Source: Candidatus Poseidoniaceae archaeon
GTDB taxonomy: Archaea > Thermoplasmatota > Poseidoniia > Poseidoniales > Poseidoniaceae
Reading direction: 5' to 3'
DNA: 64,000 bases
NCBI GenBank assembly: GCA_943788295.1
Contig: CALSPS010000002.1
Span: 187,352-251,351, forward strand
Shown: piece by piece, positions 634 through 24,784 of the stretch
Layout: each line of letters opens with the position of its first letter
How positions within the stretch are numbered: the first letter of the stretch is position 1
Made by a program: the position numbers and the translations under genes
The notes under the pieces: model-generated
Databases searched by the model: none
Told to the model about the DNA's origin: nothing
What the model saw: the letters and a program-made list of their open reading frames with translations, nothing else

Positions 634-1749
634 TCAGGCCTCCACATCGTAGAGCCATCTGTCTTCGTCCGGATCCCATTCATCCCATGTTGGTAATGTT
701 TCCAAGCGTTCAAGGTATTGCTCGGGTACGATGCCAGGCACGATGAATGCCTTTTGTCGGTGCAATGGGTATGGGTTTCGAAGGTTGATTCCAAGCACAC
801 CAAGGACTGCTCGGGCGACATACCATGTGGCTTGTGAATTCCAGCCATGGGCGATTTTGACAACGATTCCGAGTCCCTTAGGGTAATCTGGATGTTCAAT
901 CGCTAGGCCAAGCAATCCATCTGCGCCTTCTTTGGCGATGACTTTTCCTTCACCTGCTTTGAGAACTGTAGAATCGAGACGATTGAAACCACCAACTAAG
1001 TCTGGATGACGGACCATTGCCTCCCAAATCCAATCCTTGTCTTTGTCGCGTACGAGCCCGGCATAGATTTGTGCAAGTTCTGCAACCGTGTTTGAAACGG
1101 TTGGCAAACCACATCCGTCTTTTGCAACCCTCAAAGGACTCCAGTCCTCACCGAGGTAGGTGCGAATTTCTCTCATGTAAGCGTGAAAGACTTCGTGAGT
1201 CGGCAGGGTATATCCTGCACGATTCCAACCTTTTTTCCTGCACCCATGTAGGATTGCGGCATGTTCTCCCGAGCAGGTGTGGAACCAACGGCGCGGCCGT
1301 CTAACCTGTCGGCCAAATTGAATCAATGGCACATCCAGTGGGGTGAGCATCAAAGGCCATTCTTCCTCAAAAAGCAAGGATTGTGCCGCTGCGACGTGCT
1401 CAGTGTCCCCGTTGTGAGAGGCGACCGCAATCGCCTTCTGTTCCCACGTAGCGTCTTCAAGCTCTTTGGTGAATGCCTTGAGCATGAACGGTTTCATCAT
1501 CGATCGACCATAACACAAGACGTTCCCGCCAAACGAGTGGATCACCTCATCACCATGGGCCCAAGCTACTGCACCATGAATCGTGGTTTCAGAAACGCCA
1601 TTGCGCCGGTAATCAACCAGTGGCTCCCACGCCACTTCACGCCCAGTGGGAATGCCCTCGACTTGCTCGCCCAATGGGCTATCAGGATACATTGCACTGC
1701 CCGGTCGGCCGGGCTCAACTGCGGATGGAGTGTCATGTTCAATCGACAA
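634..1749 (-). CDS. Asparaginase family protein (L-asparaginase II / PF06089-like)
   Basis: 371 aa ORF. The CSGEHAAILHGC motif resembles the CSGKHAGML signature of Rhizobium-type asparaginase II. Its stop TGA (634-636) lies 3 nt upstream of the ALDH start, suggesting an operon. Confidence 0.55.
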   Translation of the reverse strand: MSIEHDTPSAVEPGRPGSAMYPDSPLGEQVEGIPTGREVAWEPLVDYRRNGVSETTIHGAVAWAHGDEVIHSFGGNVLCYGRSMMKPFMLKAFTKELEDATWEQKAIAVASHNGDTEHVAAAQSLLFEEEWPLMLTPLDVPLIQFGRQVRRPRRWFHTCSGEHAAILHGCRKKGWNRAGYTLPTHEVFHAYMREIRTYLGEDWSPLRVAKDGCGLPTVSNTVAELAQIYAGLVRDKDKDWIWEAMVRHPDLVGGFNRLDSTVLKAGEGKVIAKEGADGLLGLAIEHPDYPKGLGIVVKIAHGWNSQATWYVARAVLGVLGINLRNPYPLHRQKAFIVPGIVPEQYLERLETLPTWDEWDPDEDRWLYDVEA

Positions 1750-3082: not shown

Positions 3083-3937
3083 TCACTTCTCATCAGGGGA
3101 TTTTTTGAAGTCTGTGAGCGCTTCTATGCGTTGACGTACAGCGATTGGAGTGGGCAATCCAGCGTTGATGAAGGCATGTAGGCAGTCGGACAACTGAAGC
3201 ATTGCCGTCTCATAGTCTTCTTCGATTTCTGCAATGTCCGCAAGGCCCCAACGGGCAACAAGCTGTCCAGAAAGATCTTCCAATCCCACAGCAAGGTCAA
3301 GCGATTGGGTGTAGAGGTCCTTTGCGGCATCAAATTGGCCAAGTGTGGCTTGGCTGTGGCCCATATCGGCCATGGCTTCCATTTGGCCTTCTTCGTCCCT
3401 CATGTCCATGAGCAGTTCGATTCGCCTCGAGCCATGAACGAGGGCAGTTTCGTGATTGTGTTGCTTTTTGGCAAGCGCTTCGAGCAAGGCGAGACCGTAA
3501 ACAATACCGTTGTTGTCCTTGACTTTTTCACGAATTCGCAATGAGCGAGAGGCAAACATTTGCGCTTCTTCGTAGGCTTCTTCAGCCATGTGCAGCAACG
3601 CAACGTGATGGGCAACGGCTGCAGCGAGGGGTCCTCCACCCTCAAGCAATTCACTTTGGGCCGTTAATTCAGAGAGTGCATCGATGGAGGCACCTGTCAA
3701 TTTGAGGTGTTCAAATTCGGCCCAACCCGACTCGATTTCGTCTGTTGCGTTTGATTTGGCATGCGTTAGCAACCGTTCGGCGAGTGGTTCGTCTTCAAGT
3801 TCGAGGGCAAGTGGGATGAGGCGCAAAGCAAGGGGTGTGTTGATGTCATCCATTGCCCCGCCTTCGGTCAGCATATCCAATATCCGCCTTGCTTGATCTG
3901 CGGTCACTTCGCCGTCCATGGTTGGCGGCTGTGGCAC
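3083..3937 (-). CDS. TPR-repeat protein
   Basis: 284 aa, helical repeat pattern with Ala/Leu/Gly periodicity typical of tetratricopeptide repeats. No catalytic motif. Confidence 0.4.
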   Translation of the reverse strand: MPQPPTMDGEVTADQARRILDMLTEGGAMDDINTPLALRLIPLALELEDEPLAERLLTHAKSNATDEIESGWAEFEHLKLTGASIDALSELTAQSELLEGGGPLAAAVAHHVALLHMAEEAYEEAQMFASRSLRIREKVKDNNGIVYGLALLEALAKKQHNHETALVHGSRRIELLMDMRDEEGQMEAMADMGHSQATLGQFDAAKDLYTQSLDLAVGLEDLSGQLVARWGLADIAEIEEDYETAMLQLSDCLHAFINAGLPTPIAVRQRIEALTDFKKSPDEK

Positions 3938-4008
3938 CGCGTCAAGAACGTATCTCCTCGGCGCCGGACACGCTGAACCTTCATACGCACAAAGCGGTTG
4001 CGTCCTTC

Positions 4009-4986
4009 ATGGGCAAGTATGACGGGTACTTGCAAGGGTTGAGCATCGCAGCGATTCTCATTCTTGCTCCTCTGGCTCTGCAATCCTTGCTGAGTCAAGA
4101 TGAGGCCCAAGTGGTCTATGTCGCTGTCCCCGTGGAAAATGAAAACGAAACTTCCCCTTCTGATCCCATCTCAAACGAAGAAGCACGTGCACCCGAGTTG
4201 ACTCGAGATGAAGTGGCAAGAATTGCCACCTTCAACATCAAGGTGTTTGGCGAGACAAAGATGGGTAAACCAGAGGTTGTTTCTGTCTTGGTTGATACTG
4301 TACTGCGCTACGACTTGGTCGCCGTTCAAGAAATCAAGGACATCGATCAAACGGTTCCTTATGATTTCCTTGATGCCATCAATAACCGCAGCAGTAGCCC
4401 TTGGGGCATGCTTCTTAGTGAGCGTTCAGGGCAACAGGAAGATGATCGCTCCTCACAGGAACAATATGCCTTTTATTACAACACTTCGATGTTCGAACCA
4501 ATTGGCAATGGCACGTTGTTTAACGACAGCGAAGATGATGCTTTCCAGCGGGAACCGTTTCAGGCGCGGTTTTCATTGATCAACGAAACGGACAACACCT
4601 CAAGTTTTGATTTGAGTTTGATCACTGTTCACACCAAACCGGCAGCTGCCGTCGATGAGATCAACGCCATGGGTGAGGTTGCCTCCCGCTACCTCGCGCA
4701 ACATCCCGATGAGGAAGACCTTGTGCTGCTCGGTGATTTTAATGCAGATTGCACCTATGCTTCGGAGCAAGATTTAGCAAATTCAGCGCTTGCAGGCGGT
4801 AATTTCACTTGGATTGTTGGAAACGACGCAGACACAACGGTCGCCTCAAGTTCCTGCGCTTATGATCGAATCTTGACGACGGGAGACCTGAGCGGTCGGA
4901 TGACTGGGAACTGGGGCATCGATGAAGTGTTTACGAGCAGCAATGTTTCGGACCACTACCCAGTTTGGTTTGACATCCGCCGATGA
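4009..4986 (+). CDS. Secreted endonuclease/exonuclease/phosphatase (EEP, DNase I-like) family protein
   Basis: N-terminal signal anchor (LSIAAILILAPLALQSLLS), ATFNIKVFGETK at the N-terminus of the domain, and a C-terminal SDHYPVWFDIRR (the SDHxPV catalytic His motif of EEP). Start moved to the internal ATG at 4009 (MGKYDG) because the track ORF from 3853 overlaps the convergent TPR gene. Confidence 0.7.
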   Translation: MGKYDGYLQGLSIAAILILAPLALQSLLSQDEAQVVYVAVPVENENETSPSDPISNEEARAPELTRDEVARIATFNIKVFGETKMGKPEVVSVLVDTVLRYDLVAVQEIKDIDQTVPYDFLDAINNRSSSPWGMLLSERSGQQEDDRSSQEQYAFYYNTSMFEPIGNGTLFNDSEDDAFQREPFQARFSLINETDNTSSFDLSLITVHTKPAAAVDEINAMGEVASRYLAQHPDEEDLVLLGDFNADCTYASEQDLANSALAGGNFTWIVGNDADTTVASSSCAYDRILTTGDLSGRMTGNWGIDEVFTSSNVSDHYPVWFDIRR

Positions 4987-9494: not shown

Positions 9495-10730
9495 ATGACA
9501 GGCGACCTGTTCTCTTCTGAATCCGTAACCCGGGGCCACCCTGACAAGCTTTGCGACACCGTATCGGATGCCATTGTAGACGCCTGTTTGGCCGTTGATC
9601 CAAACGCCCGTGTGGCGGTTGAAACCTGTGTCAAGGGGAAAGAAAACCTAGGACTCATTGTGCTTGCTGGTGAAGTTTCACTCAACGGTCCGGCACCAGA
9701 TTACGAAGCAGTTGCACGCACTGCGGCCGTCGAGGTGGGGTACAACTCCCATGAGATTGGAATGGATGCAAGATCCGCTGAGTGGACAGAAGTCCAAGTT
9801 CACATCACAACTCAATCTTCAAACATCGCACAGGGTGTCAACAAGGATGGATTATCACAAGGTGCCGGTGACCAAGGGCTCATGTTTGGGTATGCCTGCA
9901 CTGAAACCGAATCATTCGACGAATTGAAGGGTCGCTTTTTCCCACTTGCTGCTGCGCTGTCCCAACGGCTCACACGACGGCTGACTGCCGTTCGAGAACA
10001 AGGCATTCTTCCATGGGCAAGACCCGATGGTAAATCTCAGGTGACCGTGGAGTACGACGAACATGGTGCCGTGTCAAAGGTACACACCGTTGTCATTGCC
10101 ATCCAACACGACAAGGCTCTCAAGGAACAATTTGACGGTTCAGAGGAAGCAGAACTCGCTCATGTGCGCAGCGAAATCGAGAAACATGTTGTCCAGTATG
10201 CCATCCCCGAAAGTTTGCTTGAGGGCGGTTACAAATTAGTCGTCAACGGGACAGGCCGTTTCGCAGATCCAGGAGGCCCATACGCAGATGCTGGTTTGAC
10301 TGGTCGAAAAATCATCGTCGATACATACGGAGGCATGGGCCGCCATGGTGGTGGCGCATTCTCAGGAAAAGATCCATCCAAAGTCGATCGGTCCGCAGCC
10401 TACGCATCCCGTTGGGCAGCAAAACACGTCGTCGCTGCTGGTCTTGCAGACCGTTGTGAAATCCAGCTTGCATACGTGATTGGCGTGGCTGAACCAGTGA
10501 GCGTTCGTGTTGAAACCTTCGGTACTTCCAGCCTAAACGATCGACTTCTTTCTGATCGTGTCAAGAAGGTCTTCGATTTCAGACCGGGCGCCATTGCTCG
10601 AGATTTACAACTTCTACGGCCAATTTATTCCACCACCGCAGCAGGTGGGCATTTCGGAAGGATTCCAGGGGACGATGGAACGTTCCCTTGGGAAGTGATT
10701 GAAGAATCACGTATTTCGAAGTTGCAGTAA
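9495..10730 (+). CDS. metK: S-adenosylmethionine synthetase (bacterial/eukaryal MetK type)
   Basis: FSSESVTRGHPDKLCDTVSDAIVDACL is the MetK N-terminal GHPDK signature, with MetK glycine-rich loops downstream. Start at ATG 9495, preceded by GAGGGGGGG. An AT-rich divergent intergenic region (9336..9494) is shared with aspS. Confidence 0.85.
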   Translation: MTGDLFSSESVTRGHPDKLCDTVSDAIVDACLAVDPNARVAVETCVKGKENLGLIVLAGEVSLNGPAPDYEAVARTAAVEVGYNSHEIGMDARSAEWTEVQVHITTQSSNIAQGVNKDGLSQGAGDQGLMFGYACTETESFDELKGRFFPLAAALSQRLTRRLTAVREQGILPWARPDGKSQVTVEYDEHGAVSKVHTVVIAIQHDKALKEQFDGSEEAELAHVRSEIEKHVVQYAIPESLLEGGYKLVVNGTGRFADPGGPYADAGLTGRKIIVDTYGGMGRHGGGAFSGKDPSKVDRSAAYASRWAAKHVVAAGLADRCEIQLAYVIGVAEPVSVRVETFGTSSLNDRLLSDRVKKVFDFRPGAIARDLQLLRPIYSTTAAGGHFGRIPGDDGTFPWEVIEESRISKLQ

Positions 10731-10820
10731 TGTCTTCTTCTCGGTATGGAAAGCGAATATTGAGCGGCCCATAGGGCCGATTCACTCAAGAGGTAGGCAT
10801 CCGTGGCTTGACTCGGTCTT

Positions 10821-13800
10821 ATGTCGTCTCGCTCCACTCGTGCTTTGGCCCTCGTCTCTGTTTTGCTTCTCGCAAGCCTCGCTCCGCTTGCGGTGCCGGC
10901 TGCTGCACACAGCGCAATTTTACTCTCCACAGACACCAGTCACGTGGTTCTTCAGCCCGGCGATGCAACCAACGTTACGCTCACAATCGAAAACAACGGC
11001 TCCTCCATCGAATCCTTCAACATCAGCGTGGATGACTCTGGACTTTCCAATGTGTGGACCGTAACTGCGGTTGATGCAACAGTGGACAATGTGTTCCCAA
11101 CTTGGACACGCAACACAACCATCGTTGTGCAATTGGCGACCGGGGCATTACCATCTGATGGTGGTTCATTCCTCATCGAGGTGACAGAACCAGATCAGAA
11201 CATTACTTCCTCGGTCGTCGTTTATGTCAACGTGCAACCTTCCTACAATCCTTTGTTGGATTTCAGTTCAAGCGGTCCTTTGTTGGAAATGGCGGCTGGT
11301 GCCTCAGGCAACGTCGCCGTTGACATCACCAATGGCGGTTCTGTAGCAGATACCCTTCTTTTGGATGTGGATTTCGAGCCAGACCTTGCCGCATGGTGGG
11401 CATCGAACGGCAACGCTACGGGTGGTAACGGGACCGGCAACGGGACTGGCAGCGGGAATGGAACCGGCAACGGGACTGGCAGCGGGAATGGAACCGGTAA
11501 CGGGACTGGCAGCGGGAATGGAACCGGTAACGGGACTGGCAGCGGGAATGGAACCGGTAACGGGACTGGCAGCGGGAACGGAACCGGCAATGGAACAGGT
11601 GGTGCCAACACAACCACCATCTCGAACGTCCTGATGTTCGGGAACAGTTACACCGCAAGCAGCAGCCTAAACGGTTTGCTCGAATCCATGGGCGTGCTCA
11701 ACGCCGATGCTATTTCGCCGGGTGGTAAGCGTTTAGATCAACACTGGAGCGATGTCAACACCTCTGCTCATGCCTCAAACACCACCTTGAGGGACCCAGC
11801 GATTGACTGGGACTACGTAGTGCTTCAAGATCAAAGTCAAGTCCCAGGATTCTATCGTACAACCTCCTCTTGGATTGCAAGTAAGGATGGCGCGGTTGCA
11901 TTAAGCCAAGCCGTCGATGATGAAGGCTCTGAGTCAATTTTGTTCATGACATGGGGCCGTCGAAATGGAGATGCGATGAATCCGACCCTCTACTCAAATT
12001 TCACGGTCATGCAGGACCGCTTAGAAGAGGGCTACATCGACTACAGGGACAACATGACTGCTGCGGGTTCAACAGTTTGGATTGCACCTGTCGGTCTTGC
12101 CTTCAAGCACATTCACGATAATGTGGTTGCGGGTGGCGTCAACGCAAGCGTCAGTGGAAATCTGTTTTACGACCTCTATTCTTCAGACGGAAGCCACCCT
12201 TCCCTTGCTGGAAGTTACCTTGCAGCGTGTGTGCTTTATGCCACAATGACTGGAACATCCCCAGTTGGCTCGAACGACACCGTCTCCCTCAACGCCAACA
12301 TAAAACTCCAACTTCAGCAAGCAGCTGCTGCGACCGTCTTCAACGAAACATCGCACCTCGACTATCCTTGGGAAAGTTCGAGCACAACTTCGACAACGAG
12401 TGCACGAGGTTTGGGCGGTGGCGTTCCAGCTGGATGGAATGTCCAATGGGTCGACGATCAACTGGACAACATGAGTGCAGGGGAAACCCGTCAAGTGACC
12501 TTGCAGATCAGCGTACCTGCGGATGTAACACCAGATTTCTACGGATTCAGGCTTTACGCAGCATCGACCCAGGGCAACGTCTCGAGTTCGACCATTGTTG
12601 TTGTTCACGTGGACGAACAACACAACCTAAGCATGGCGTTCCTCGACCAAGATGCAGACTTCATCCCTGGGTCAACCCAGAACACAAGCGTTGTAGTGAC
12701 CAACACCGGAAACGCTGAGGCTGATTTCGATTGGTCGATTGAATCCATATCAGGTCCTTGCGCATTCGCCCTTCCTGTCGCGTCTGCGCTCGCCGTTTCA
12801 CCAGATCAAGCGGTCAATGTTGCCGTTCAGGTCGATGTGCCTGCCTCTGCAACCATTGCCGATTCATGCACATTCAGCCTTTCCGGGTCAACACCTGATG
12901 GCAGTGCGATGATGGTTGCAGGAAGCGACACATTCACGATCGCTGTCGATGAACATGTCGAGTTCGAAGTTGTTGCTTTGGATTCGGTGGTTGAAGTGGA
13001 ACATGGTGCTGCATCCATGTACAATGTTCGTCTGTACAACAACGGAAGCGAAACCCGTTCGTTCAACCTAGAGGTTGTCGAGGTGACAGGCTTGGACACC
13101 GTTGTGACCTCCTCTCTTACGATTGATGTGGCCGCGGGTGAAACTGGTCTTTGGGCCATTGAAACTCAGGCAGATGAAGGCACAGTGGGCGACTTCATTC
13201 AATTCTTTGAGGTCATCCGTGGAGATCAAACTTCAACCACATCTGTGGAAATTGAAGTCTTGCCAACGGCACAAATCGAGTTGGCAGGGCCTCTGGATGG
13301 TCGAATTTTGATGCAGCCAGGTTCCACAAGCAGCACCGTCTTGACTGTGACCAATACTGGTACAGGAAACGTTTCTTTGGTGGCTTCTCTTTCCGGGCTA
13401 CCGGCTTCAGTCCAAGCGGAAATCAGCCACACATCGCTGTCGCTGACCGTTGGTGAAACCGCTCAAGTTCACCTCAATCTTTCTTTAGCGAACAATGCAG
13501 ATCCGGGGACGCATCCACTCACGATAGGCTTTGGTGGTTCAGGGGCCTCGGCAACAACAAGCATTGATTTGCAAATCCAAGACCGGTTTGCAGTGCTTGT
13601 TTCCACCACCTCGAGCGATATGGTCGCAGGCCCAGCCAACAATGCAAGTGCCACCTTTGATGTCACCAACCTCGGCACTTCCACGGACATTTACCAACTC
13701 AGCATCGTTGATGCCTCACAATCCGATTGGTTTTCATTCACGCTCTCCACGACCTCGGTCACGGTTGGAGCAGGAGAAACGGCAACCGTTGAATTGTCTG

Positions 13801-14951
13801 TTCGTGAAATTTCCACTGGTGCCACTTCCAACGGAATCACAGTGGCTCTTCTCGCAAGTTCTGGTACCGATGAAAATGCAGAGCATCACGTCAACTTGAC
13901 GGTACGTCCACAGATTGCTGGAGCGACCATTACCGTCATTGCTGATGATGATGAAGCCAAGCCTGGATCAAGCATTCGCGGCACAGTTGTGGTTCAGAAC
14001 AGCGGGACGGGCCAAGACCAACTTCTGCTGACCACCGTTGGTTTGGATTGTGGTGTGACGGCTCAATTCAACCTCGAAGCAGGTGCTTCGTCTTCCGCAA
14101 TTCCATGGTCGTGTGTCATTGAAGACACTGCACAATCTGGGCTTGGGGAATTGCTCTTCAGAGTCACCAGTTCGGCCCGCAGCGAGTATGTTGCAACCTA
14201 CACTGAAATTTACTCTGTTGAACCGTCATGGGATGCAAGTAATGTCCTTCAAGTCACAACCGATCTCGCCTCATACGCCGTACCCTATTCAGGCGGTACG
14301 ACTCTCGTTGTAACGGTTGAAAACCTCGCCAACACCCAAGTGTCGGGATCTTTGGATTTCGCTGGTGAAGGTTCAGCCATGCTCTTAGGGGAATGGTCAA
14401 GGTATGTTGACAATGCAAGCACATCGGCCTTTGTGCTCGCACCGTTTGCAAGCGTTGACTTTGAATTAACCCTTACTTCGAACGTTCAAAATGAAGAGGA
14501 TGCTGACTTATTCATCAAGGTCACTTACACCATCGATGCTACGACAACCACTTCTTCTGACCAATCTCCAAATTTTGCTGTGGAAGTTGCCGGTCCTGCC
14601 CAAGCACCACAAGGCGTAACCCTGCCGCTTGGATTCCAATTGGATCAGAATTCAACATTGAACGCATTGATCGGTGGTTGGGTCTTTTCCCTGCTTCTTC
14701 TTAGCGTGATGTACATCCAACGCTCACGTCGGGGCGAAGTGGAGGTTGAATCAGAGGACCAGGATGACGAAGTCGTTGAAGAAGCCTCGGAACCTGAACC
14801 AGCAACCTTAGGGTACAACGAGTGTCGAATGGAAGATGGCAAGGTCAGTTGCCCATCATGTGACGCTCGACTTGGTGTGCCTCGAAGCAGCGTGGCACCA
14901 TTCCGCTTTACATGTCCAAAGTGTCAAACTACGATCCGCGTGATTGAATGA
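10821..14951 (+). CDS. Giant secreted surface protein: signal peptide, NGT-sequon repeat linker, SGNH-hydrolase-like domain, long beta-rich repeat region, C-terminal TM helix and cytoplasmic acidic tail with zinc ribbon
   Basis: 1376 aa. The N-terminus MSSRSTRALALVSVLLLASLAPLAVPAAAHS is a signal peptide. (GNGTGNGTGS)n spans aa ~200-260. The VLMFGNSYT...DWDYVVLQDQSQ...ILFMTWGRRNG...DGSHPSLAGSYLAACVLYATMTG pattern matches an SGNH-like hydrolase family (recalled as DUF4886-type). It is Thr/Ser/Val-rich with many NxS/T sequons. The C-terminus has a TM helix (LIGGWVFSLLLLSVMYI), then an Asp/Glu-rich tail and CPSCDARLGVPRSSVAPFRFTCPKCQTTIRV. Confidence 0.7.
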   Translation: MSSRSTRALALVSVLLLASLAPLAVPAAAHSAILLSTDTSHVVLQPGDATNVTLTIENNGSSIESFNISVDDSGLSNVWTVTAVDATVDNVFPTWTRNTTIVVQLATGALPSDGGSFLIEVTEPDQNITSSVVVYVNVQPSYNPLLDFSSSGPLLEMAAGASGNVAVDITNGGSVADTLLLDVDFEPDLAAWWASNGNATGGNGTGNGTGSGNGTGNGTGSGNGTGNGTGSGNGTGNGTGSGNGTGNGTGSGNGTGNGTGGANTTTISNVLMFGNSYTASSSLNGLLESMGVLNADAISPGGKRLDQHWSDVNTSAHASNTTLRDPAIDWDYVVLQDQSQVPGFYRTTSSWIASKDGAVALSQAVDDEGSESILFMTWGRRNGDAMNPTLYSNFTVMQDRLEEGYIDYRDNMTAAGSTVWIAPVGLAFKHIHDNVVAGGVNASVSGNLFYDLYSSDGSHPSLAGSYLAACVLYATMTGTSPVGSNDTVSLNANIKLQLQQAAAATVFNETSHLDYPWESSSTTSTTSARGLGGGVPAGWNVQWVDDQLDNMSAGETRQVTLQISVPADVTPDFYGFRLYAASTQGNVSSSTIVVVHVDEQHNLSMAFLDQDADFIPGSTQNTSVVVTNTGNAEADFDWSIESISGPCAFALPVASALAVSPDQAVNVAVQVDVPASATIADSCTFSLSGSTPDGSAMMVAGSDTFTIAVDEHVEFEVVALDSVVEVEHGAASMYNVRLYNNGSETRSFNLEVVEVTGLDTVVTSSLTIDVAAGETGLWAIETQADEGTVGDFIQFFEVIRGDQTSTTSVEIEVLPTAQIELAGPLDGRILMQPGSTSSTVLTVTNTGTGNVSLVASLSGLPASVQAEISHTSLSLTVGETAQVHLNLSLANNADPGTHPLTIGFGGSGASATTSIDLQIQDRFAVLVSTTSSDMVAGPANNASATFDVTNLGTSTDIYQLSIVDASQSDWFSFTLSTTSVTVGAGETATVELSVREISTGATSNGITVALLASSGTDENAEHHVNLTVRPQIAGATITVIADDDEAKPGSSIRGTVVVQNSGTGQDQLLLTTVGLDCGVTAQFNLEAGASSSAIPWSCVIEDTAQSGLGELLFRVTSSARSEYVATYTEIYSVEPSWDASNVLQVTTDLASYAVPYSGGTTLVVTVENLANTQVSGSLDFAGEGSAMLLGEWSRYVDNASTSAFVLAPFASVDFELTLTSNVQNEEDADLFIKVTYTIDATTTTSSDQSPNFAVEVAGPAQAPQGVTLPLGFQLDQNSTLNALIGGWVFSLLLLSVMYIQRSRRGEVEVESEDQDDEVVEEASEPEPATLGYNECRMEDGKVSCPSCDARLGVPRSSVAPFRFTCPKCQTTIRVIE
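11425..11606 (+). repeat. Tandem 30-bp direct repeat (about 5.5 near-identical copies) inside the surface-protein gene, encoding GNGTGNGTGS units
   Basis: The unit gaaccggcaacgggactggcagcgggaatg recurs at 11461, 11491, 11521 and 11551 with only synonymous ggc/ggt and aat/aac changes. Partial copies flank it at 11431 and 11581. The repeat also creates spurious ORFs in other frames on both strands. Confidence 0.9.
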
Positions 14952-14954
14952 ATC

Positions 14955-15761
14955 TTATTCGGTTGAAGTTCTCTGAGCAATGAGCAAAAAGGCAGTGTGG
15001 CCGAATGGCCCGTTGACTGGTCGCATACCACCTTTCGATGCCTTGCCCCATTGGCGCTCCATGAGTTCTCCAGCCCATTCTACGGTGAGGCCAGCGCCTT
15101 CAGCAGCTTCCCATGCCAATTCAACTTGGCTGGTCACGGGGCAATAACACGCCATACGCCCGCCGACGGCAAGCAGCGAGGCGACAGCGTCAATTGCAGT
15201 GGGGTGTTGAGGCAAATCGAGAATGATTGCATCAAAAAACTCTGAATGAGAGCGAATTTCATCAACCACCTCTTCAATGGCTCCGTGAACGTGATGGTGG
15301 CTGGGGAATTCATGCCAAGATGCTCGTGCACGATCCATGTTTTTTAGGCCAACATCGGCGTGTTCTGATCGTGGTTCTACAGTGACATGAGTTCCACTTC
15401 CTCCAAGTGACCTCGCAATGTGCATCGAGAGGCCTGCACTGCCTAGTCCTGCTTCTAGGACACGGTCGCCCGATCCAATTCCAAGTTTTGCGATAAAGTA
15501 GCCAGCGTCTTTGGCACTGATGGTTTGTGCCCTTCGGAGCATTCCTCTGGAAAGTTCGGGGAGGCGGGGCGGCATTCTCGTCAATTGCTTTTGGCCAAGG
15601 GTGATGACGGTACCATAGGGTGCGCTCCCGATTGTATCAACAGGATCAAAAACACCCAAACCTTTGACTTTGCGAACGCCAGCCGACATTTCCACAACAT
15701 GGACTTTCCCTTCTGCTTCGACCAGAACTGCCCACGCATCGTTGACCATAAGCGATGCCAA
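14955..15761 (-). CDS. trmI: tRNA (adenine57/58-N1)-methyltransferase TrmI
   Basis: GDRVLEAGLGSAGLS is the SAM-binding motif 1. FFDAIILDLPQHP and a C-terminal GPFGHTAFLLIAQR match the TrmI/Gcd14 family (...HTGFLtfARk). Confidence 0.75.
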   Translation of the reverse strand: MASLMVNDAWAVLVEAEGKVHVVEMSAGVRKVKGLGVFDPVDTIGSAPYGTVITLGQKQLTRMPPRLPELSRGMLRRAQTISAKDAGYFIAKLGIGSGDRVLEAGLGSAGLSMHIARSLGGSGTHVTVEPRSEHADVGLKNMDRARASWHEFPSHHHVHGAIEEVVDEIRSHSEFFDAIILDLPQHPTAIDAVASLLAVGGRMACYCPVTSQVELAWEAAEGAGLTVEWAGELMERQWGKASKGGMRPVNGPFGHTAFLLIAQRTSTE

Positions 15762-15794
15762 CCGACGCTCGGTTTCAATCCTTCGTGGACCAAG

Positions 15795-15936
15795 ATGTTC
15801 TTTTGTTTAGGTTCCAGCGAAAATTATACATTTGTGCTTATTATAATCACATTGTAGCCCAGTGCCCCGTTTGTAAATTTAGATGCGCAGTCGGGAAAGG
15901 GGTTGGTTAAAATACCAACTAGGATGTGAAGGAAAC
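15795..15936 (+). promoter_or_regulatory. AT-rich divergent promoter region with several TATA-like boxes upstream of surface protein 2 (and trmI on the other strand)
   Basis: aaaattataca (15821-31), ttataatc (15841-48) and ttgtaaatttag (15871-82) sit in a locally AT-rich stretch. A weak SD AAGGAAAC precedes the ATG at 15937. Confidence 0.25.
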
Positions 15937-18900
15937 ATGAAGATGCCCGCTCGCCTTCTTGCTCTAACCATCGTAACTCTGTTCGTAGGAAGTGTTCTTA
16001 CAGGATTTACTGCAGAAATGAACTCAGTTTCATCAGATTTGATTCTTGAAGAACCTGCTGCTGTGAACCAAGCAAGTTCCGCAACAAGCCCTGGACACGT
16101 CGTGTTCGGCCAATACATCTCATCTGACAATTGTGGGCACTGCTCGAAGACAGGTGGAGGTTCTGACGCTCATCACGCAGTCAAGCAACTTCACCCGGAT
16201 GAGTACGTGTACATCACCTACATGTCCGCATCCTATGGCGACACAGACACCGCACGTGCTGGAAACGTCGCCCCATACAACTGGGCTTGGTCCACCGGTG
16301 GAGCACCCGATGCCTATTTCGGTGACCGAACCGACAAAGGCCAAAGTGGTGCATCAGCCAATTATGACACCTACGACACCCTCTTCTCCTCCGGTGGAGG
16401 AATGGCTTCAACCGTCAACGATTACGGAATGTCTGCATCAATCTCCCAAAGCGGTGGAACCTATGATGTCGATATTTCTTACCGATACTCCGGATCTGCA
16501 TCGCCAGCAAGCAACATGAAATTGTATGCAGCCCTCGTTGACAAAGACTGCACAGGGTACACCTACAGTTCGGGTATTCCCCATGGCTACAACTGCTGGA
16601 TGGCTTGGCTCACTGCTGGTGACACCTACAAATCAAAGAACGCAGGTACAGGATCGTCTTTCATCAGCGTAACACCAACATCCACCTCCCAATCCGAGAC
16701 TTGGAGCAGTATTCCAACCTCAGTGGTCCCAGGTGGTATCAACAAGGCGGTCGTCATTGGTGTGCTCATGTCTGGCAATCAAGTGTCCCTTGGCGGCAGT
16801 TCTGCCCACGTATACCACGCTATTGATTCCACAATGGGTCCAAAGATGGACCTGACCCCAGGGCCACTCACCGCCACAAATCCAGAAGGCGGCTCAGCTT
16901 ATGTGATCGGTGACACACTCACACTCTCCTCGAGCATCAGCAATGTTGGCGACCTTGATTACACCGCAGGTGGTACAATTGAATTCTTCTACAAGAACGG
17001 CGTCAACGAAGTTACCATCGATACGGTCTCTCTCAACAACCTCGCAATGGGCGCATCTCAGCCTGCTTCGGTTTCCTTTGACACATCGGTCCTTCCAAGC
17101 AATGGTTGGAAAACAACCTTCGGTGTTCGATTGACCGGATTGGTCGATGAAACCCAAAGCGCAAACAACGTCGCTCAGACGGAACTTGACCATGACCGGC
17201 CCCCCTTGGCCATGAAGGCCCAGGTCGAAGGCTCGAATGTCATTGCACGAGGCACCCAATTCAACATCCTTGCAAAGGGTGATGCAGACGACAATGTTGA
17301 CACGATTGAAAGCATGTCGTTCAACATTGAAGTCTCACCGAGCAGCCAAAACCAATGGTCGAATGCCATCGTCTCTGGTGGTGAAATGATCTTGTATCCC
17401 GGCTCAGCAAGCGAAGGTCGGGAATACCTCCTCAGTCCATCAATGGACATGACCTCTGGCTGGTATGACATCCGCTCACAAACTGTTGATTCACGAAGCC
17501 AAACCAGCGCATGGAGTGTGACCGCAGATGCCTTTGAACTTGCAAATGGGATTCCATCCATTGTCGCTGAACCGATCCCTTCGGTTCTGTGCGACATCAC
17601 CAGTAAAGTCGATATGACCCCTCACGTTTCGGATCCTGAAACCCCTCTAGAGGACCTTGTCATTACCTCGGACAGCCCTGCGTTCATCGCATGGCATGCC
17701 GCATCTGCAGAACTCGAAGTCAACTTTGCATGGAGCGAAATCAATGGATGCCCTCTCGGACAACAAGGCATCGAAATCCGAGTCGATGATGGTGGAGATT
17801 ATTCTCAAACCGGTGAATTGCCGTATGGGACCCTCTTGTTTAACATCCTCGAGAACGGACAACCTCGCTGGGAAGGCCTTCCAACTCAAACCATCGATGA
17901 AGGTGGCAGCGGTCTTATTGATTTGCTTCCATTCCTTTCCGACACTGACGACACCGGCCAATCGGTGAATGCAAACACCCTCGCCGTGTCGATGGTGAGC
18001 AGCTCCAACCCAGATGTGATTGAGTTCACCCTTGACGGCTACGCACTCGGCTTCGAGACTTTGGATGACGATGTCAACGGCCAGTCGATTGTAACCCTTC
18101 GTGCGAGCGATGGTGAACAAATCTCAGAACAGACCATGATGGTTCAAATCAACCCTGAAAACGATGCACCTCGTGTCGATATGGAGGGACTTGAATCCAT
18201 CAAACTCAAGCGAAACGAAGAGATGGTTGTCGACTTAGTCTCTCGAATCACAGACATTGACGATCCTGCTTCTGAGGCCTTTGTCACGGTGACACCATCC
18301 GAAGCTGGGGCTGCCCGGTACAATTTGCTCACGGGTCTGCTTACGATTCAGTTCGAAAAAGTTGGTTTACAAACTGTTTCGATCGAAGTCATGGACAAGT
18401 ATGACACCAACACCTACACGATGAACATCGAAATCTACGATGCGCTTCCTCTTGAACTCGCACTGGTTGACGATGGAACCGGTCACATCTTTGCGGACAT
18501 GTCAAACGCTTACATCGGGCAAACTCCAATCATTACAATGACCCTGACCGACAACGCTCCCGTGTTTACCTACCTGTATGCGACCTGGAACGTCTGCAAC
18601 ACCCTAACTGGTACCTGTGATGGGTTGCTCAGTTTTGAGATGGATGTGACCCAATCCAACACAGGCTGGACCAATGAACTCGATATGCCGTCCTTGGTCT
18701 TCGAAGGGCAATCTGCCCGTGCAGATGGAGCACGAGACCGTGATTACTACGAAGTTGAATTGATGGGTACCGCTGACGATGGTGAGGATTACAAGACCCT
18801 TTCAAAGGTCAAGTGGGACATCACTGAGAACGCACCAACGCCAGAAGAGATGACGGATGATGCGCTATCGAATCACATCGTGAACCTCCTGGCCACAAAA

Positions 18901-19374
18901 GCATCTCTCGAAGGTGCAATTTCGGAATCAAACGGAGACACAACCGAACTCGAGGCAGACCTTGTTGAGGTCAAAGCAAATCTCGACCTTGCTTGTGATG
19001 ATCCACGGGCTCAATGCCCGACCGACGGTAACTCGGGTGCAGCCGTAGCTGAAACAGGGGAAATCCTCCCAATCGAAACCATTGCATTTGTCGTCATTGG
19101 CGTGGTCATTGCGGCCCTTCTCATCGGTCTCATGATGACTCGGGGTGGGCGCGAGCAGGAAGATGTTGCATGGAATGCAGGCACCGTACCCGCTAACGAT
19201 ATGGTCGCTAACTCGATGTACGGTGGAGCCCAGGAATTGTTCCAAGCACCAGCACCGATCGTGCCTCAAGCACCATCAGCAGGACCACCATTGCCAGCAA
19301 CAGGACTGCCTGTTGGATGGACAATGGAGCAATGGGTCTACTATGGACAGCAATACCTCGACGACCAACGTTGA
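15937..19374 (+). CDS. Giant secreted surface protein 2 (signal anchor, Ser/Thr/Asp-rich beta-repeat ectodomain, C-terminal TM helix and short cytoplasmic tail)
   Basis: Start at MKMPARLLALTIVTLFVGSVLTGF (ATG 15937); the track ORF begins 54 nt earlier. It is >1100 aa, low in Cys apart from a few pairs, and has many D/T/S-rich Ig-like or cadherin-like stretches. The C-terminal TM is IAFVVIGVVIAALLIGLMM, followed by a Pro/Ala-rich tail ending GWTMEQWVYYGQQYL. Confidence 0.65.
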   Translation: MKMPARLLALTIVTLFVGSVLTGFTAEMNSVSSDLILEEPAAVNQASSATSPGHVVFGQYISSDNCGHCSKTGGGSDAHHAVKQLHPDEYVYITYMSASYGDTDTARAGNVAPYNWAWSTGGAPDAYFGDRTDKGQSGASANYDTYDTLFSSGGGMASTVNDYGMSASISQSGGTYDVDISYRYSGSASPASNMKLYAALVDKDCTGYTYSSGIPHGYNCWMAWLTAGDTYKSKNAGTGSSFISVTPTSTSQSETWSSIPTSVVPGGINKAVVIGVLMSGNQVSLGGSSAHVYHAIDSTMGPKMDLTPGPLTATNPEGGSAYVIGDTLTLSSSISNVGDLDYTAGGTIEFFYKNGVNEVTIDTVSLNNLAMGASQPASVSFDTSVLPSNGWKTTFGVRLTGLVDETQSANNVAQTELDHDRPPLAMKAQVEGSNVIARGTQFNILAKGDADDNVDTIESMSFNIEVSPSSQNQWSNAIVSGGEMILYPGSASEGREYLLSPSMDMTSGWYDIRSQTVDSRSQTSAWSVTADAFELANGIPSIVAEPIPSVLCDITSKVDMTPHVSDPETPLEDLVITSDSPAFIAWHAASAELEVNFAWSEINGCPLGQQGIEIRVDDGGDYSQTGELPYGTLLFNILENGQPRWEGLPTQTIDEGGSGLIDLLPFLSDTDDTGQSVNANTLAVSMVSSSNPDVIEFTLDGYALGFETLDDDVNGQSIVTLRASDGEQISEQTMMVQINPENDAPRVDMEGLESIKLKRNEEMVVDLVSRITDIDDPASEAFVTVTPSEAGAARYNLLTGLLTIQFEKVGLQTVSIEVMDKYDTNTYTMNIEIYDALPLELALVDDGTGHIFADMSNAYIGQTPIITMTLTDNAPVFTYLYATWNVCNTLTGTCDGLLSFEMDVTQSNTGWTNELDMPSLVFEGQSARADGARDRDYYEVELMGTADDGEDYKTLSKVKWDITENAPTPEEMTDDALSNHIVNLLATKASLEGAISESNGDTTELEADLVEVKANLDLACDDPRAQCPTDGNSGAAVAETGEILPIETIAFVVIGVVIAALLIGLMMTRGGREQEDVAWNAGTVPANDMVANSMYGGAQELFQAPAPIVPQAPSAGPPLPATGLPVGWTMEQWVYYGQQYLDDQR

Positions 19375-19447
19375 GTCGAATCACCCCATCATCTTCATAC
19401 ATGGTGGATTGTAAACCCATAAAGGGGAGTAGCGTGGAGGCCATACT

Positions 19448-21526
19448 GTGACCGAAGAGACTGACGACGTCGTTGCTCCCGTCGAGGCGGCGGAAGAGGC
19501 CACTGTTGCTGTCGAAAAAACAGCTTCAGAGGTGGACAAAACCGAGGTGACCGTGTGGGCCCCCGAACCGTCAACAGACGCCGACGATGTCATGTCACTC
19601 AGCGTTGACGAGTGGATTCAATCCGTCAATTTTGATTCGACCGAAGACGTTCCAATTCCAGACCGCTTAGTGGACCAAGTCATCGGCCAAGAAGCGGGTT
19701 CAGTGGTGATCAAAAAAGCCGCAGAACAACGCCGCCACATGCTTATGATCGGCGATCCAGGTACTGGGAAATCCATGCTTGCCCGCTCAATGACCGATTT
19801 GCTCCCCAAGGATGCGCTTGAAGACCTTCTCGTGTATCCAAACGAAGACGATGAGAATGAACCCCGCGTCCGTTCCGTTCCTGCAGGCCGAGGCGACCGA
19901 ATCGTCAAGTTGCAAAAGGAATCAATGCGCACTCAGCGAGAACGCTCCCAAAAAATGCTCTTGATTGCATTTGCAGCCGTCGGTTTCCTCATTCTCATCG
20001 CCACGCTTCAATCAGGTGATATCATCACCCTGCTGTTTGGTGGTTTCTTGCTTATGTTCGGCTACATGTTCATCCGGGGACGATTGAGTTCTGGAGACGA
20101 GAGCCGAATTCCCAAGGTGCTCGTGAAGCATGAAAATTCATCCCCTCCACCGTTCGTCGATGCAACAGCTACCCTTTCAGGGTCCCTTCTCGGTGATGTT
20201 CGCCACGATCCTTTCCAGTCAGGCGGAATGGAAACACCTGCACACGATCGTGTCGAGCCAGGTGCGATCCACCGTGCTCACAAAGGCGTGCTTTACATCG
20301 ACGAGGTCAACCTTCTTCGTCTTGAGGAGCAACAAGCCTTGTTGACTGCAATGCAAGAGCGAGCCTTCCCTATCTCAGGACGCTCAGAACGCTCTTCGGG
20401 TGCATTGACGAAGACAGAACCTGTGCCATGCGACTTCATCTTGATCGCTGCTGGAAACCTCGATGCAATACAAGGGATGCACCCAGCGCTACGAAGCCGT
20501 ATCCGTGGCTATGGATACGAAGTTTATGTCAACTCAGAAATGCCTGACACCGCACGAAACCGAAGGCGCTTGATTCGCTTCATTGCCCAAGAAGTCCGCC
20601 GAGACATGGGCACTTCTCGCGAAATACCTCATTTTGAAAAGAGTGCGGTCGCTATCATTCTACGCGAAGCCCAACGCAGAGCAGGTCGACGAGGCAAGCT
20701 CTCCCTGCGCCTGCGTGAACTCGGAGGATTGGTTCGGATTGCGGGAGATCTTGCCATGGAAGAGGGCGCACCTCTTACCACTGCAGCACACGTCCTTGGC
20801 GCCCGTAACATCGCTAAGCCGCTTGAACAACAGGTGGCAGACCGAATGATTGAGCGCCGTCAAGATTACGCATTGGTCGTTAATTCCGGTGAGCGAATCG
20901 GACGAGTGAACGGACTTGCGGTCCTCGGAGCTAATTCTGGCTTGTCGGATTTCAGCGGGATCATGTTGCCCGTCGAAGCACTTGTCACTCCGTCTCAAGG
21001 CGGTGGTGGGAAAATTCACGCTACAGGTGGTCTTTCTGACCTCGCTAAAGAAAGCGTCACAAACGTGAGTGCTGTGATTAAGAAACTGACTGGGAAGGAC
21101 ATCTCTGATTATGACATCCACATCCAATTCGTGGATACCCATGGGGTGGATGGCGACTCCGCTTCCATCACCATCGCAACAGCAATCATTTCCGCTCTCG
21201 AAAGCATCCCAATTCGTCAAGATTTGGCCATGACGGGTTCTCTGTCGGTTCGTGGTGAAGTTCTGCCAATTGGCGGTGTTACCGCTAAAATCGAAGCAGC
21301 AGCTCGCTCGGGCATCAAAACCGTCGTCATTCCACGTGCAAACATGCAAGACGTTCTCTTGGATGAAAAATACGAAGCCATGGTCGAGGTGGTCCCAGTT
21401 GATACACTCGATGAAGTCATGGAATTTGCACTCATCAAGCATGCAGAAAAGGCAGGATTGGTCGAACGGTTGGGTGCTGTCATCGACCGTCTGACTCCTC
21501 TTCCAAGCAAGGTTCAATCCGCTTGA
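19448..21526 (+). CDS. lonB: Archaeal membrane-bound Lon protease (LonB)
   Basis: LVDQVIGQE is present. The Walker A is [18 protein letters not shown]. Two TM helices are inserted in the AAA+ domain ([31 protein letters not shown]), which is the hallmark of archaeal LonB. The C-terminal Lon protease domain carries [16 protein letters not shown] (catalytic Ser). It starts with GTG at 19448 and an acidic 55-aa N-terminal extension. Confidence 0.85.
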
Positions 21527-21600
21527 GCACGCTAGCAAGACGACGCCTCTTGATGGACATAGGCGTTGGGTACAAGAAGACCCCTTGATTCGGTGAACGC

Positions 21601-22977
21601 ATGGACACGAAGGAAGATGCACCACTTCCGGTTGTCGACGCCAGCAAGGGTGCCCTTTTGGTCCTCTTTTTGGTCACCGTTATCGACATGATTGGTTTTG
21701 GAATCGTCATCCCTTTCCTGACCTATTTGGTTGAAGATCTCACTCCTGCAAGTCAAGAAGCCAGCATCGGCATCTGGGTGGGTGTCCTTATGACTTCTTA
21801 CTCAGCAGCCCAATTCCTTTTTTCCCCCTTTTGGGGCTCCCTTTCAGACAGAATAGGGCGTCGCCCGGTCCTGATGGTGGGTTTGGTTGGCAACACCGTC
21901 TTTTTCACGATGTTTGGCCTTGCCAACACATTGCTGATCGCTCTCGCGGCTCGCTTCTTAGCAGGCGTTTTCAACGGTAATCTTGCTGTAGCTCGGGCCT
22001 ACATTGGTGATGTGAGCACTCCGCAACAACTTGCCACACGAATGGGGCTCATTGGGGCAGCATTCGGTTTGGGGTTCACATTTGGCCCATTCATCGGCGG
22101 CGAACTTTCAGACCCTGCGAGCAGATGGGAGGTCTTTACCGGGACCATCTTTGACGCTAACCCTTACCTTTTACCGTGTGCAGTGGCCAGTTTATTGTCG
22201 ATTCTTTCACTGCTCGTTGCCATTCGGAACCTTCCGGAGTCGCTGCCTCTTGAGCGACGAACAAAGAGTGAGCGCACCTCCTGGACCGGTGGCATGATTC
22301 AAACAATGAAGAACACCTCGTCCATGCTCCGCTCGGGAAGTGTCTCCGTCGTTATTTGGGTCTCAATGCTGTTCATTTTCGGGTTTACAATCATGCACGC
22401 CGTCTTCATCCTCTACACTCAAATGTCACCAACTGATGGTGGTCTGGCGTTTAGCGAGGCAGACAACGGACGTGTTTTTGCTATGATTGGAATCACGGGT
22501 ATTCTTACTCAAGGGTTCCTCATCGGACCCCTTTCCCGTCGTCTGGGCACCCGTCGGCTCATTCCCATTGCCATCGCCATCACCGGGCTGGGACTTGTTT
22601 TGATTCCATACACTGAGTTTGAACACCGATGGTTGCACATCTTGATCGTGGGTACGCTGATTTCGATTGGCAACGGTTTGTTCCAGCCCTCCTCCTCCTC
22701 GTTCCTGACCCGTATTGCAAAATCCGAAGGCTATGAGTTGGGTGTTGTGATGGGTGCTCAAGAATCAGTCGGTGCCTTTGCAAGGATCATTGGACCACTC
22801 ACTGGAGGCTTTGTTTGGGTCTACACTGATGCAAGAGACTGGCCTTTAGATTACCACACTGCATTCCATTTGTGTGGTGTCTTGATGATCTTAGCAGGCA
22901 TGATGTCCTTGCGCCTACCACTCCTCCCTCAAGACGAATCAAATCAAAGTTCGGAACCATCGTTTGCAGAAGAGTAA
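21601..22977 (+). CDS. MFS transporter
   Basis: About 12 predicted TM segments. MFS motif A is present as GSLSDRIGRRPVLMVGL. Confidence 0.8.
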   Translation: MDTKEDAPLPVVDASKGALLVLFLVTVIDMIGFGIVIPFLTYLVEDLTPASQEASIGIWVGVLMTSYSAAQFLFSPFWGSLSDRIGRRPVLMVGLVGNTVFFTMFGLANTLLIALAARFLAGVFNGNLAVARAYIGDVSTPQQLATRMGLIGAAFGLGFTFGPFIGGELSDPASRWEVFTGTIFDANPYLLPCAVASLLSILSLLVAIRNLPESLPLERRTKSERTSWTGGMIQTMKNTSSMLRSGSVSVVIWVSMLFIFGFTIMHAVFILYTQMSPTDGGLAFSEADNGRVFAMIGITGILTQGFLIGPLSRRLGTRRLIPIAIAITGLGLVLIPYTEFEHRWLHILIVGTLISIGNGLFQPSSSSFLTRIAKSEGYELGVVMGAQESVGAFARIIGPLTGGFVWVYTDARDWPLDYHTAFHLCGVLMILAGMMSLRLPLLPQDESNQSSEPSFAEE

Positions 22978-23017
22978 CCGACATCATCTTCAAATGGTAA
23001 TATTGTCCCCTTGAATC

Positions 23018-24442: not shown

Positions 24443-24709
24443 TCACAGAACTTCAGTTAGGATTTTTTCCAACTCGGTGTTGATCATCAAGATTAGGGTT
24501 CCAAATTCCGGTGGAATGTTGGGGTCCTCATACAATTCTTCCAACTTGGATTGGGCCATTGCGATGCGAACATCGAGTTTCTTAGCCTTGTTGAGCAACC
24601 AATTTTCACAGGCTTCCTTGGCTTGACGGCGAATGTTTCGTGGGACTTTTGGGTCATCAATTTGGTTGATGACTGTGGCTACTTGTTGAAGACGAGTTTC
24701 GATGTCCAT
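24443..24709 (-). CDS. UPF0147 family small protein (archaeal)
   Basis: MDIETRLQQVATVINQIDDPKVPRNIRRQAKEA...EDPNIPPEFGTLILMINTELEKIL carries the VPRNIRR motif and an ~88 aa length typical of UPF0147. Start moved to the ATG at 24707-24709, which is preceded by GGGG. The track ORF (to 24955) adds 82 non-conserved residues. Confidence 0.55.
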   Translation of the reverse strand: MDIETRLQQVATVINQIDDPKVPRNIRRQAKEACENWLLNKAKKLDVRIAMAQSKLEELYEDPNIPPEFGTLILMINTELEKILTEVL

Positions 24710-24784
24710 AATTACAGCCCCTTTGGTCGCTACCTGTTGCTGTGTGTAGGCCGTCTTTAAGTTGATTGCCGGCCCCCGCACACC

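Follow-up and report, generated by a model that had tools for sequence, protein, structure and literature searches.

In a 64,000-nucleotide stretch of contig CALSPS010000002.1 from a Candidatus Poseidoniaceae archaeon (hereafter, the window), a 30-bp tandem repeat lies within the gene of a 1376-aa type-I membrane ectoprotein (10821..14951, plus strand). We conclude that the repeat probably encodes a disordered, glycosylated spacer, dense in N-glycosylation sequons and variable in copy number while staying in frame, within a C-terminally anchored ectoprotein of Marine Group IIa (MGIIa) archaea. The gene is the only long open reading frame (ORF) spanning the repeat, its synteny is conserved, and it has 416 detectable homologs, every named one of which belongs to Candidatus Poseidoniales, Poseidoniaceae or Poseidonia, that is, to MGIIa. 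Hundreds of homologs back its reading frame and strand, and, with the plus frame fixed by homology, we discarded a minus-strand ORF that overlaps the repeat (11243..11620) as spurious. An RNA-level explanation of the repeat was dropped as well, since Rfam returned only two tRNAs in the window.

Tandem Repeats Finder placed the repeat at 11433..11590 (5.3 copies, 97% matches, score 288), with a degenerate 12-bp sub-period inside it (72%). Read in frame on the plus strand, it forms six 30-bp units (11424..11603) that encode five copies of GNGTGNGTGS followed by GNGTGNGTGG and contain 12 NGT sequons; an earlier interpretation made from the DNA letters (the sequence-only reading) had put the repeat at 11425..11606, which is right to within a few bases. 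Units 3–5 (11484..11573, plus strand) are identical at the DNA level, and it is here that the near-identical assemblies L165 and L168 differ from the window by one unit. Relative to these central units, unit 2 carries one synonymous change, unit 1 four and unit 6 six. The sequence-only reading had the units differing only at synonymous third positions, a description that fits all units up to the last codon of unit 6, where AGC>GGT (S>G) is the sole non-synonymous codon. Eleven codon differences among the units are therefore synonymous and one is non-synonymous, although only ~27% of sites are synonymous, which indicates that the repeat peptide is under purifying selection. The identity of the central units and the divergence of the edge units point to a recent internal expansion, as had been proposed.

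Residues 198–265 (68 residues) hold 14 N-x-S/T sequons with x other than Pro: N198 (NAT), twelve NGT from N203 to N257, and N263 (NTT), with one N-G-T per 4–6 residues in the array. This count agrees with the earlier claim of at least 14 sequons in about 70 residues, and sequence, homologs and predicted topology concur with its picture of N-x-T sequons set densely and at even intervals, here in a large archaeal protein that is exported and anchored in the membrane. A scan for arrays of at least four sequons close together turned up no other in the window; in related Poseidoniales loci, such arrays occurred almost exclusively in the same gene family.

The repeat sits in a disordered linker (aa 185–264; 11373..11612) which AlphaFold2 (AF2) modeled with a predicted local distance difference test score (pLDDT) below 50, between two domains with pLDDT above 90. 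This and the protein's other features are all on the plus strand. The linker is bordered by the motifs EPDLAAWW and NVLMFGNSY, which are kept in all homologs. On its N-terminal side, a putative signal peptide (aa 1–30, ending ...PAAAHS; 10821..10910), assigned from a hydrophobic segment at aa 5–35 and modeled as a helix over aa 4–19 followed by a low-confidence stretch, precedes an all-β immunoglobulin (Ig)-like β-sandwich (aa ~30–180; 10908..11360; pLDDT >90, Ig-like Foldseek matches) that holds the conserved sequons N51, N59 and N67. On its C-terminal side lies an SGNH-hydrolase-fold, DUF4886-like domain (aa 268–515; 11622..12365; pLDDT >90). The hydropathy scan and sequence further indicated a C-terminal transmembrane helix (aa 1278–1300; 14652..14720) followed by RSRRG, in keeping with the positive-inside rule. 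With the signal peptide and this single C-terminal helix, aa ~31–1277, linker included, are predicted to be extracytoplasmic. The sequence-only reading had also proposed that the linker sets stalk length. As the membrane anchor is C-terminal, however, the repeat is placed at the distal tip, between the N-terminal Ig-like domain and the SGNH-fold domain, where it would have no control over height above the membrane, and the proposal was abandoned.

A sequon-rich linker is found between EPDLAAWW and (V/L)LM(F/Y)GNSY in every homolog. Its length ranges from 18 to 98 aa among 170 unique linkers, with five further alleles carrying a ~330-aa insertion, and it is composed mainly of N (26%), G (25%), T (18%) and S (16%). 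The 170 linkers contain 1511 sequons in 7644 residues, or one per five residues, against 628 expected from composition-preserving shuffles; the residue at N+2 is S or T in 79% of cases versus 33.5% by composition, whereas N+1 is diverse (G, N, S, T, V, Q) and x varies freely, including also E and D. Repeat periods across the family are 12, 15, 27, 30 and 33 bp, all multiples of three. At this site, relatives with 90–93% nucleotide identity carry expansions of other units, examples being (GGNNT)5 in L019, (GGNST)5 in P0260 and L082, and GNGT variants in L023 and L119, and the expanded linkers of close relatives all finish at the same GGANTTTISNV boundary. The conserved property of the linker is its sequon density and not its sequence.

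The ~330-aa insertion interrupts the linker of certain strains (L046, 1656..2732; also L051, L052, L122, L140, P0026, P0035 and P0264). The insertion consists of ~45-aa repeats (SSLAIDSNDNLHVTY...DGSSWSTP) matching the Pfam SBBP β-propeller repeat (E 3e-7), and sequon repeats are retained on both sides of it. L046, which has the propeller, and L019, which lacks it, share 400-nt flanks that are 98.8–99.5% identical.

Sequons are also maintained in the folded parts of the ectodomain. N51, N59, N320, N411 and N508 were present in 60 of 60 homologs at 48–75% identity, and N393 in 98% of them; without the linker, the ectodomain has 23 sequons versus 13 expected, and most proteins of the window show counts near expectation. 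One other window protein with an excess is a secreted Exo_endo_phos (nuclease/phosphatase) protein (3853..4986, plus strand), with 9 sequons versus 2.9 expected and a family that is 2.8-fold enriched over 22 orthologs; it has an internal start and a signal-like segment at aa 58–82.

The opposite pattern was observed in a neighboring 1163-aa surface protein (15883..19374, plus strand), which has no sequon where ~10 are expected. Over 119 cluster representatives of its family, the mean is 0.41 sequons versus 10.5 expected, and S or T occupies N+2 in only 1.2% of cases compared with 15–21% at offsets -2, -1, +1, +3 and +4. Avoidance this specific to N+2 is to be expected only in cells whose exported proteins are scanned by an oligosaccharyltransferase. 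This constitutes context evidence suggesting that N-x-S/T is under selection in the exported proteins of the lineage.

From these sequences we infer that the linker is N-glycosylated. An oligosaccharyltransferase gene has been annotated, and is differentially transcribed, in a Poseidoniales metagenome-assembled genome (MAG) (PMC9723583). AglB is described as almost universal in Archaea and as bearing a WWDxG motif (PMC11407970), and a further report describes it as accepting N-x-S/T with only Pro excluded at x (PMC8342417).

Several points weigh against the proposed interpretation, beginning with those on glycosylation. Pfam identified no AglB/STT3 among 21 proteins of the 64-kb window, and the WWD[YWFN]G / WWDxG motif is absent from the window and from 1.9 Mb of related Poseidoniales loci; the presence of AglB in the host genome is assumed by analogy, from literature on relatives. 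Being 4–6 residues apart, the sequons of the array may not all be occupied. In addition, an apparently cytoplasmic 441-aa protein (30644..31969, minus strand) that is Glu/Lys-rich and coiled-coil-like, with neither a Pfam match nor a hydrophobic segment, has 9 sequons versus 2.7 expected (P ~0.002), so that enrichment alone is no proof of export or glycosylation.

The linker might instead be an unglycosylated, flexible Gly/Asn/Thr/Ser spacer, its sequons a by-product of amplifying a short N-G-T-containing unit. Unmodified low-complexity G/N/S/T linkers exist, tandem amplification multiplies any motif of the founding unit, and no AglB was found nearby. Since amplification inflates sequon counts, we counted distinct unit types as well, using tandem periods of 3–11 residues in 208 unique linkers. 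A sequon is held by 36 of the 37 distinct types, which include GNGT, GNNS, GNNT, GNSS, GGNGT, GGNNT and GGNST. At least 37 unit types have thus been expanded independently across lineages, all but one of them with a sequon, and while x varies freely (G, N, S, E, Q, D), position +2 is almost solely T or S, which argues against a by-product of amplification. So do the conserved sequons of the folded domains and the neighboring family, whose avoidance of sequons at N+2 specifically implies that the motif matters in the exported proteins of these archaea. We consider an unmodified spacer rather unlikely.

The sequence-only reading had anticipated that linker length varies between strains. Loci from the same population were found through an identical neighbor protein, P0280 (nine contigs), and seven of these loci were compared; they are 99.5–99.9% identical to window 9883..25374 over 12–15 kb. 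Between identical anchors, the window holds 210 nt, or 6 units, while L165 (ERZ10646672) and L168 (ERZ1741262) hold 180 nt, or 5 units; this 30-nt gap at the repeat is the sole gap in the 12–14.5-kb alignments, and the encoded proteins otherwise differ from the window protein by one residue. In L164 (443-kb contig, ERZ10646538 contig_32459; 99.9% identical), the corresponding segment at ~1602..1721 measures 119 nt, ~3 units, and a 1-nt deletion in a GGG run of the repeat splits the gene call into 240 + 1105 aa. This deletion is probably a consensus error, the alternative being a real frameshift allele. A 100-N gap interrupts the repeat in the scaffolds L162, where at least ~7.4 units are visible, and L163; the contigs L166 and L167 begin within the repeat. 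The expectation is borne out at the assembly level by the 6, 5, 5 and ~3 units of these assemblies and by stepwise series of linker lengths within clusters at ≥90% protein identity.

In those clusters, the protein minus its linker is constant at 1296, 1304, 1305, 1303, 1299, 1298 or 1306 aa, a few apparently truncated members excepted, and the remaining length variation is all in the linker. In the P0003 cluster, where the protein without its linker measures 1296 aa, linkers lengthen by GGNNT steps through 29/34/39/44/49/54/59 aa, also on contigs of 200–450 kb, and L045 has an 89-aa linker with 100% identical flanks. Between pairs of loci whose 400-nt flanks are 99.5–100% identical, copy number differs whenever the linker is a clean repeat, whereas the length of short non-repetitive linkers never differs.

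The remaining points against the interpretation concern these copy numbers, which derive from metagenome assemblies and not from reads. Assemblers can collapse whole units, the 150–210-bp arrays are near or above short-read k-mer and read lengths, Logan assemblies tend toward shorter arrays, and the 1-nt deletion of L164 is typical of consensus error. The copy-number differences could then be assembly artifacts around one fixed natural length. Of the eight assemblies from this population (the window and the seven loci), four are broken or gapped at the repeat, and the N-gaps in L001 and L082, the shorter Logan arrays and the L164 frameshift fit such artifacts too. However, an identical 5-unit allele occurs in two unrelated assemblies, ERZ10646672 and ERZ1741262, and many alleles recur in several independent assemblies and on contigs of 200–450 kb. 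Alleles also differ in point changes and unit order (P0130, P0144, P0195), and the linkers of relatives at 90–93% nucleotide identity are unalignable, beyond any assembler error. Taken together, the recurrence of alleles in unrelated assemblies, their differences in sequence and unit order, and the unalignable linkers of close relatives indicate that much of the variation is real. In-frame length variation at the strain level is supported, and a single fixed length seems to us quite unlikely.

The repeat is nevertheless a systematic assembly breakpoint in MGIIa metagenomes, where it causes N-gaps and split MAG contigs. N-gaps at the repeat were seen in L001 (2895..2994) and L082 (10659..10708), as well as in L162 and L163, and the contigs that end there are L075, L119/L121, L126, L139, L166 and L167. 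Such gaps have also given rise to the many database entries of ~1093–1110 aa that start with M(F/Y)GNSY, which are artifacts.

A glycosylated, length-variable spacer could arise and act as follows. After Sec export, AglB would glycosylate most linker Asn residues, the unfolded linker being a good substrate. The dense N-glycans would stiffen and extend the linker into a hydrophilic, protease-resistant "bottle-brush" tether and thereby give the distal Ig-like module a long reach relative to the SGNH-fold domain. Slippage in replication or unequal recombination between the near-identical 30-bp units would add or remove 10 residues, with two sequons, at a time, and the resulting in-frame length alleles would segregate among strains. 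Selection would preserve the density of sequons and leave length and unit sequence free to drift or diversify; length itself may be neutral above a minimum, or under diversifying selection imposed by viruses and grazers.

The identity of the protein bears on how the spacer is to be understood, and the SGNH-fold domain is informative here. A phmmer search against the PDB matched 4s1p (E 2e-12), and Foldseek matched the same entry, a "putative SGNH hydrolase" (target TM-score 0.85, E 3e-11), with Bacteroides acylhydrolases also among the matches. Over 61 sequences, G274-N275-S276 and D456-x-x-H459 are either invariant or conserved at ≥90%. Pfam DUF4886 (PF16227) scored 22.2 bits, under its gathering threshold of 26.7, and the homolog P0057 is labeled "DUF4886 domain-containing protein" by NCBI. 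The domain thus resembles the DUF4886 branch of the SGNH/GDSL superfamily (PF16227; 4s1p) in its fold, in the G-x-S of block I with S276 and in the D456-x-x-H459 of block V, but differs from it in that block I reads GNS and not GDS, the Pfam score is below threshold, and the domain forms part of a 1376-aa multi-Ig protein anchored in the membrane.

The sequence-only reading had pointed to the heavy N-glycosylation of archaeal surface (S-layer) proteins. That it is the S-layer glycoprotein of the cell, with the repeat as a glycosylated spacer of it, would suit its large size, its export, its many sequons and its C-terminal anchor, as well as its conservation and synteny throughout Poseidoniaceae. 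Yet Pfam and NCBIfam gave only Ig-like, DUF4886 and zinc-ribbon matches and none to an S-layer family, an SGNH-hydrolase-fold domain with conserved Ser/Asp/His is present, and the cytoplasmic zinc ribbon would be unusual among S-layer proteins. Such an identity is therefore improbable. Sequence and model describe what is predicted to be a membrane-anchored, ecto-enzyme-like protein, not demonstrably one of the S-layer.

Lastly, a contingency locus switching the surface protein on and off, which the sequence-only reading had raised as phase variation and which a near-perfect tandem repeat in a surface-protein gene and the L164 frameshift (240 + 1105 aa) might recall, is barely credible, as gain or loss of a 30-bp unit in the coding region keeps the frame and alters length, not expression, so that classical phase variation is excluded, all family periods being multiples of three and slippage hence frame-neutral, and as the frame of L164 is broken not by a change of unit but by one nucleotide missing from a GGG run, which looks like a consensus error.

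Glycosylated spacers of variable copy number are well known in other organisms. The variable-number tandem repeat (VNTR) of MUC1, the yeast Flo/Als adhesins and the bacterial serine-rich repeat proteins all contain O-glycosylated, Ser/Thr/Pro-rich spacers that vary in copy number. The MGIIa linker resembles these mucin-like spacers as a disordered low-complexity repeat in an exported protein, with dense glycosylation sites and the character of an extended spacer, and in its in-frame copy-number polymorphism through slippage or recombination; it differs in being archaeal, in placing an N-linked N-x-S/T sequon in a Gly/Asn-rich unit, and in that its sites are predicted. In secreted glycoside hydrolases and esterases, glycosylated Pro/Thr/Ser linkers join a binding module to the catalytic domain. 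As in those extracellular enzymes, a small β-sandwich module is joined here to a catalytic-type α/β domain by a linker whose length differs among orthologs and which presumably provides extension and protease protection; unlike theirs, the MGIIa linker has a G/N/T composition, a putative N- and not O-linkage, and a near-perfect DNA repeat that gives rise to length alleles within a species.

Among archaeal N-glycoproteins, surface proteins processed by AglB include the Haloferax and Halobacterium S-layer glycoprotein, Sulfolobus SlaA and archaellins (PMC4287180, PMC3892788, PMC11407970). The 1376-aa protein shares with them export and sequon enrichment, but their sequons are scattered over folded domains, whereas here 12–14 form a tandem array in a variable-copy linker. 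Our literature search on MGII glycosylation and sequon arrays returned no description of a tandem sequon array in a variable-copy linker, nor of the protein family. The principle of a glycosylated variable-copy spacer being familiar from other organisms, the N-sequon linker of MGIIa is an extension of that principle and comes as no surprise.

Poseidoniales are among the most abundant planktonic archaea. To our knowledge, none has been cultured, and we know of no experimental work on their envelope. The present analysis offers sequence-level evidence for N-glycosylation shaping Poseidoniales surface proteins, in that a hypervariable linker retains its sequons, those of the folded domains are conserved, and a neighboring surface protein has been cleared of them. 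The repeat can also serve as a length marker at the strain level, readable directly from long-read metagenomes, and it explains both a recurrent break in MGIIa assemblies and the many truncated ~1100-aa gene calls of public databases.

The sequon-free neighbor and the optional SBBP β-propeller are the less expected observations. Both would be accommodated if the MGIIa surface proteome were sorted by a "sequon grammar", in which the fast-evolving brush linkers of some ectoproteins are under diversifying selection, the neighbor family is kept nearly sequon-free because it must stay unglycosylated, and the linker is permissive to recombination (for example, of the ~330-aa SBBP β-propeller). Copy-variable N-glycan brush linkers might, on such a grammar, help cells to escape viruses or grazers that recognize the surface. 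We put this forward tentatively, as a possible but doubtful extension; if true, sequence alone would give a first handle on the envelope glycobiology of an abundant uncultured ocean archaeon.

The remainder of the 1376-aa protein is organized as follows. The SGNH-fold domain is followed by a second, short, Ser/Thr-rich linker (aa 518–537; 12372..12431; pLDDT <50 over 520–537). In the window it reads SSSTTSTTSARGLGGG and is sequon-free, and the same position in L158 and L159 carries a (GNGT)n array. A stalk of about seven Ig-like/CARDB-like domains (aa ~540–1270; 12438..14630) was recognized by Pfam NPCBM_assoc, FixG_C, Ig_VWA7 and HYDIN-like Ig matches, by an NCBIfam choice-of-anchor T match below cut-off, and by BLAST self-similarity every ~105 aa. 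Beyond the transmembrane helix, an acidic tail leads to a putative cytoplasmic zinc ribbon (CPSC...CPKC; 14841..14945; Pfam Zn_ribbon below cut-offs), whose cysteines are nearly invariant across 60 homologs. The cytoplasmic tail as a whole (aa 1301–1375; 14721..14945) has a pattern, LGYNECRM...CPSC...LGVPRGS...F.CP.C, that is nearly invariant across the family, which suggests that the surface protein may have a conserved intracellular interaction.

The sequon-free 1163-aa protein has a signal or anchor segment at aa 21–44, a C-terminal transmembrane helix at aa ~1058–1089 and ten invariant Cys. AF2 modeled a confident Ig-like stalk, with pLDDT <50 over aa 1–180 and patchy confidence to ~320. 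Strong conservation marks the N-terminal region up to aa ~320, which includes a CGHC motif (aa 84–87); Pfam and a PDB profile search gave no match for this region.

The window has ~51% GC and contains two tRNAs. An exact look-up of its 1376-aa protein returned no identical entry; the homologs include MG2_1379, from the first Marine Group II (MG-II) genome. The conserved gene order comprises Asp-tRNA synthetase, SAM synthetase, the 1376-aa gene, GCD14, the 1163-aa protein and LonB. The archaeal gene and its synteny also occur in L114 (NZNM01000002.1) and L153 (NZEQ01000011.1), contigs in MAGs labeled Opitutaceae and Verrucomicrobiales, labels that likely reflect mis-binning.

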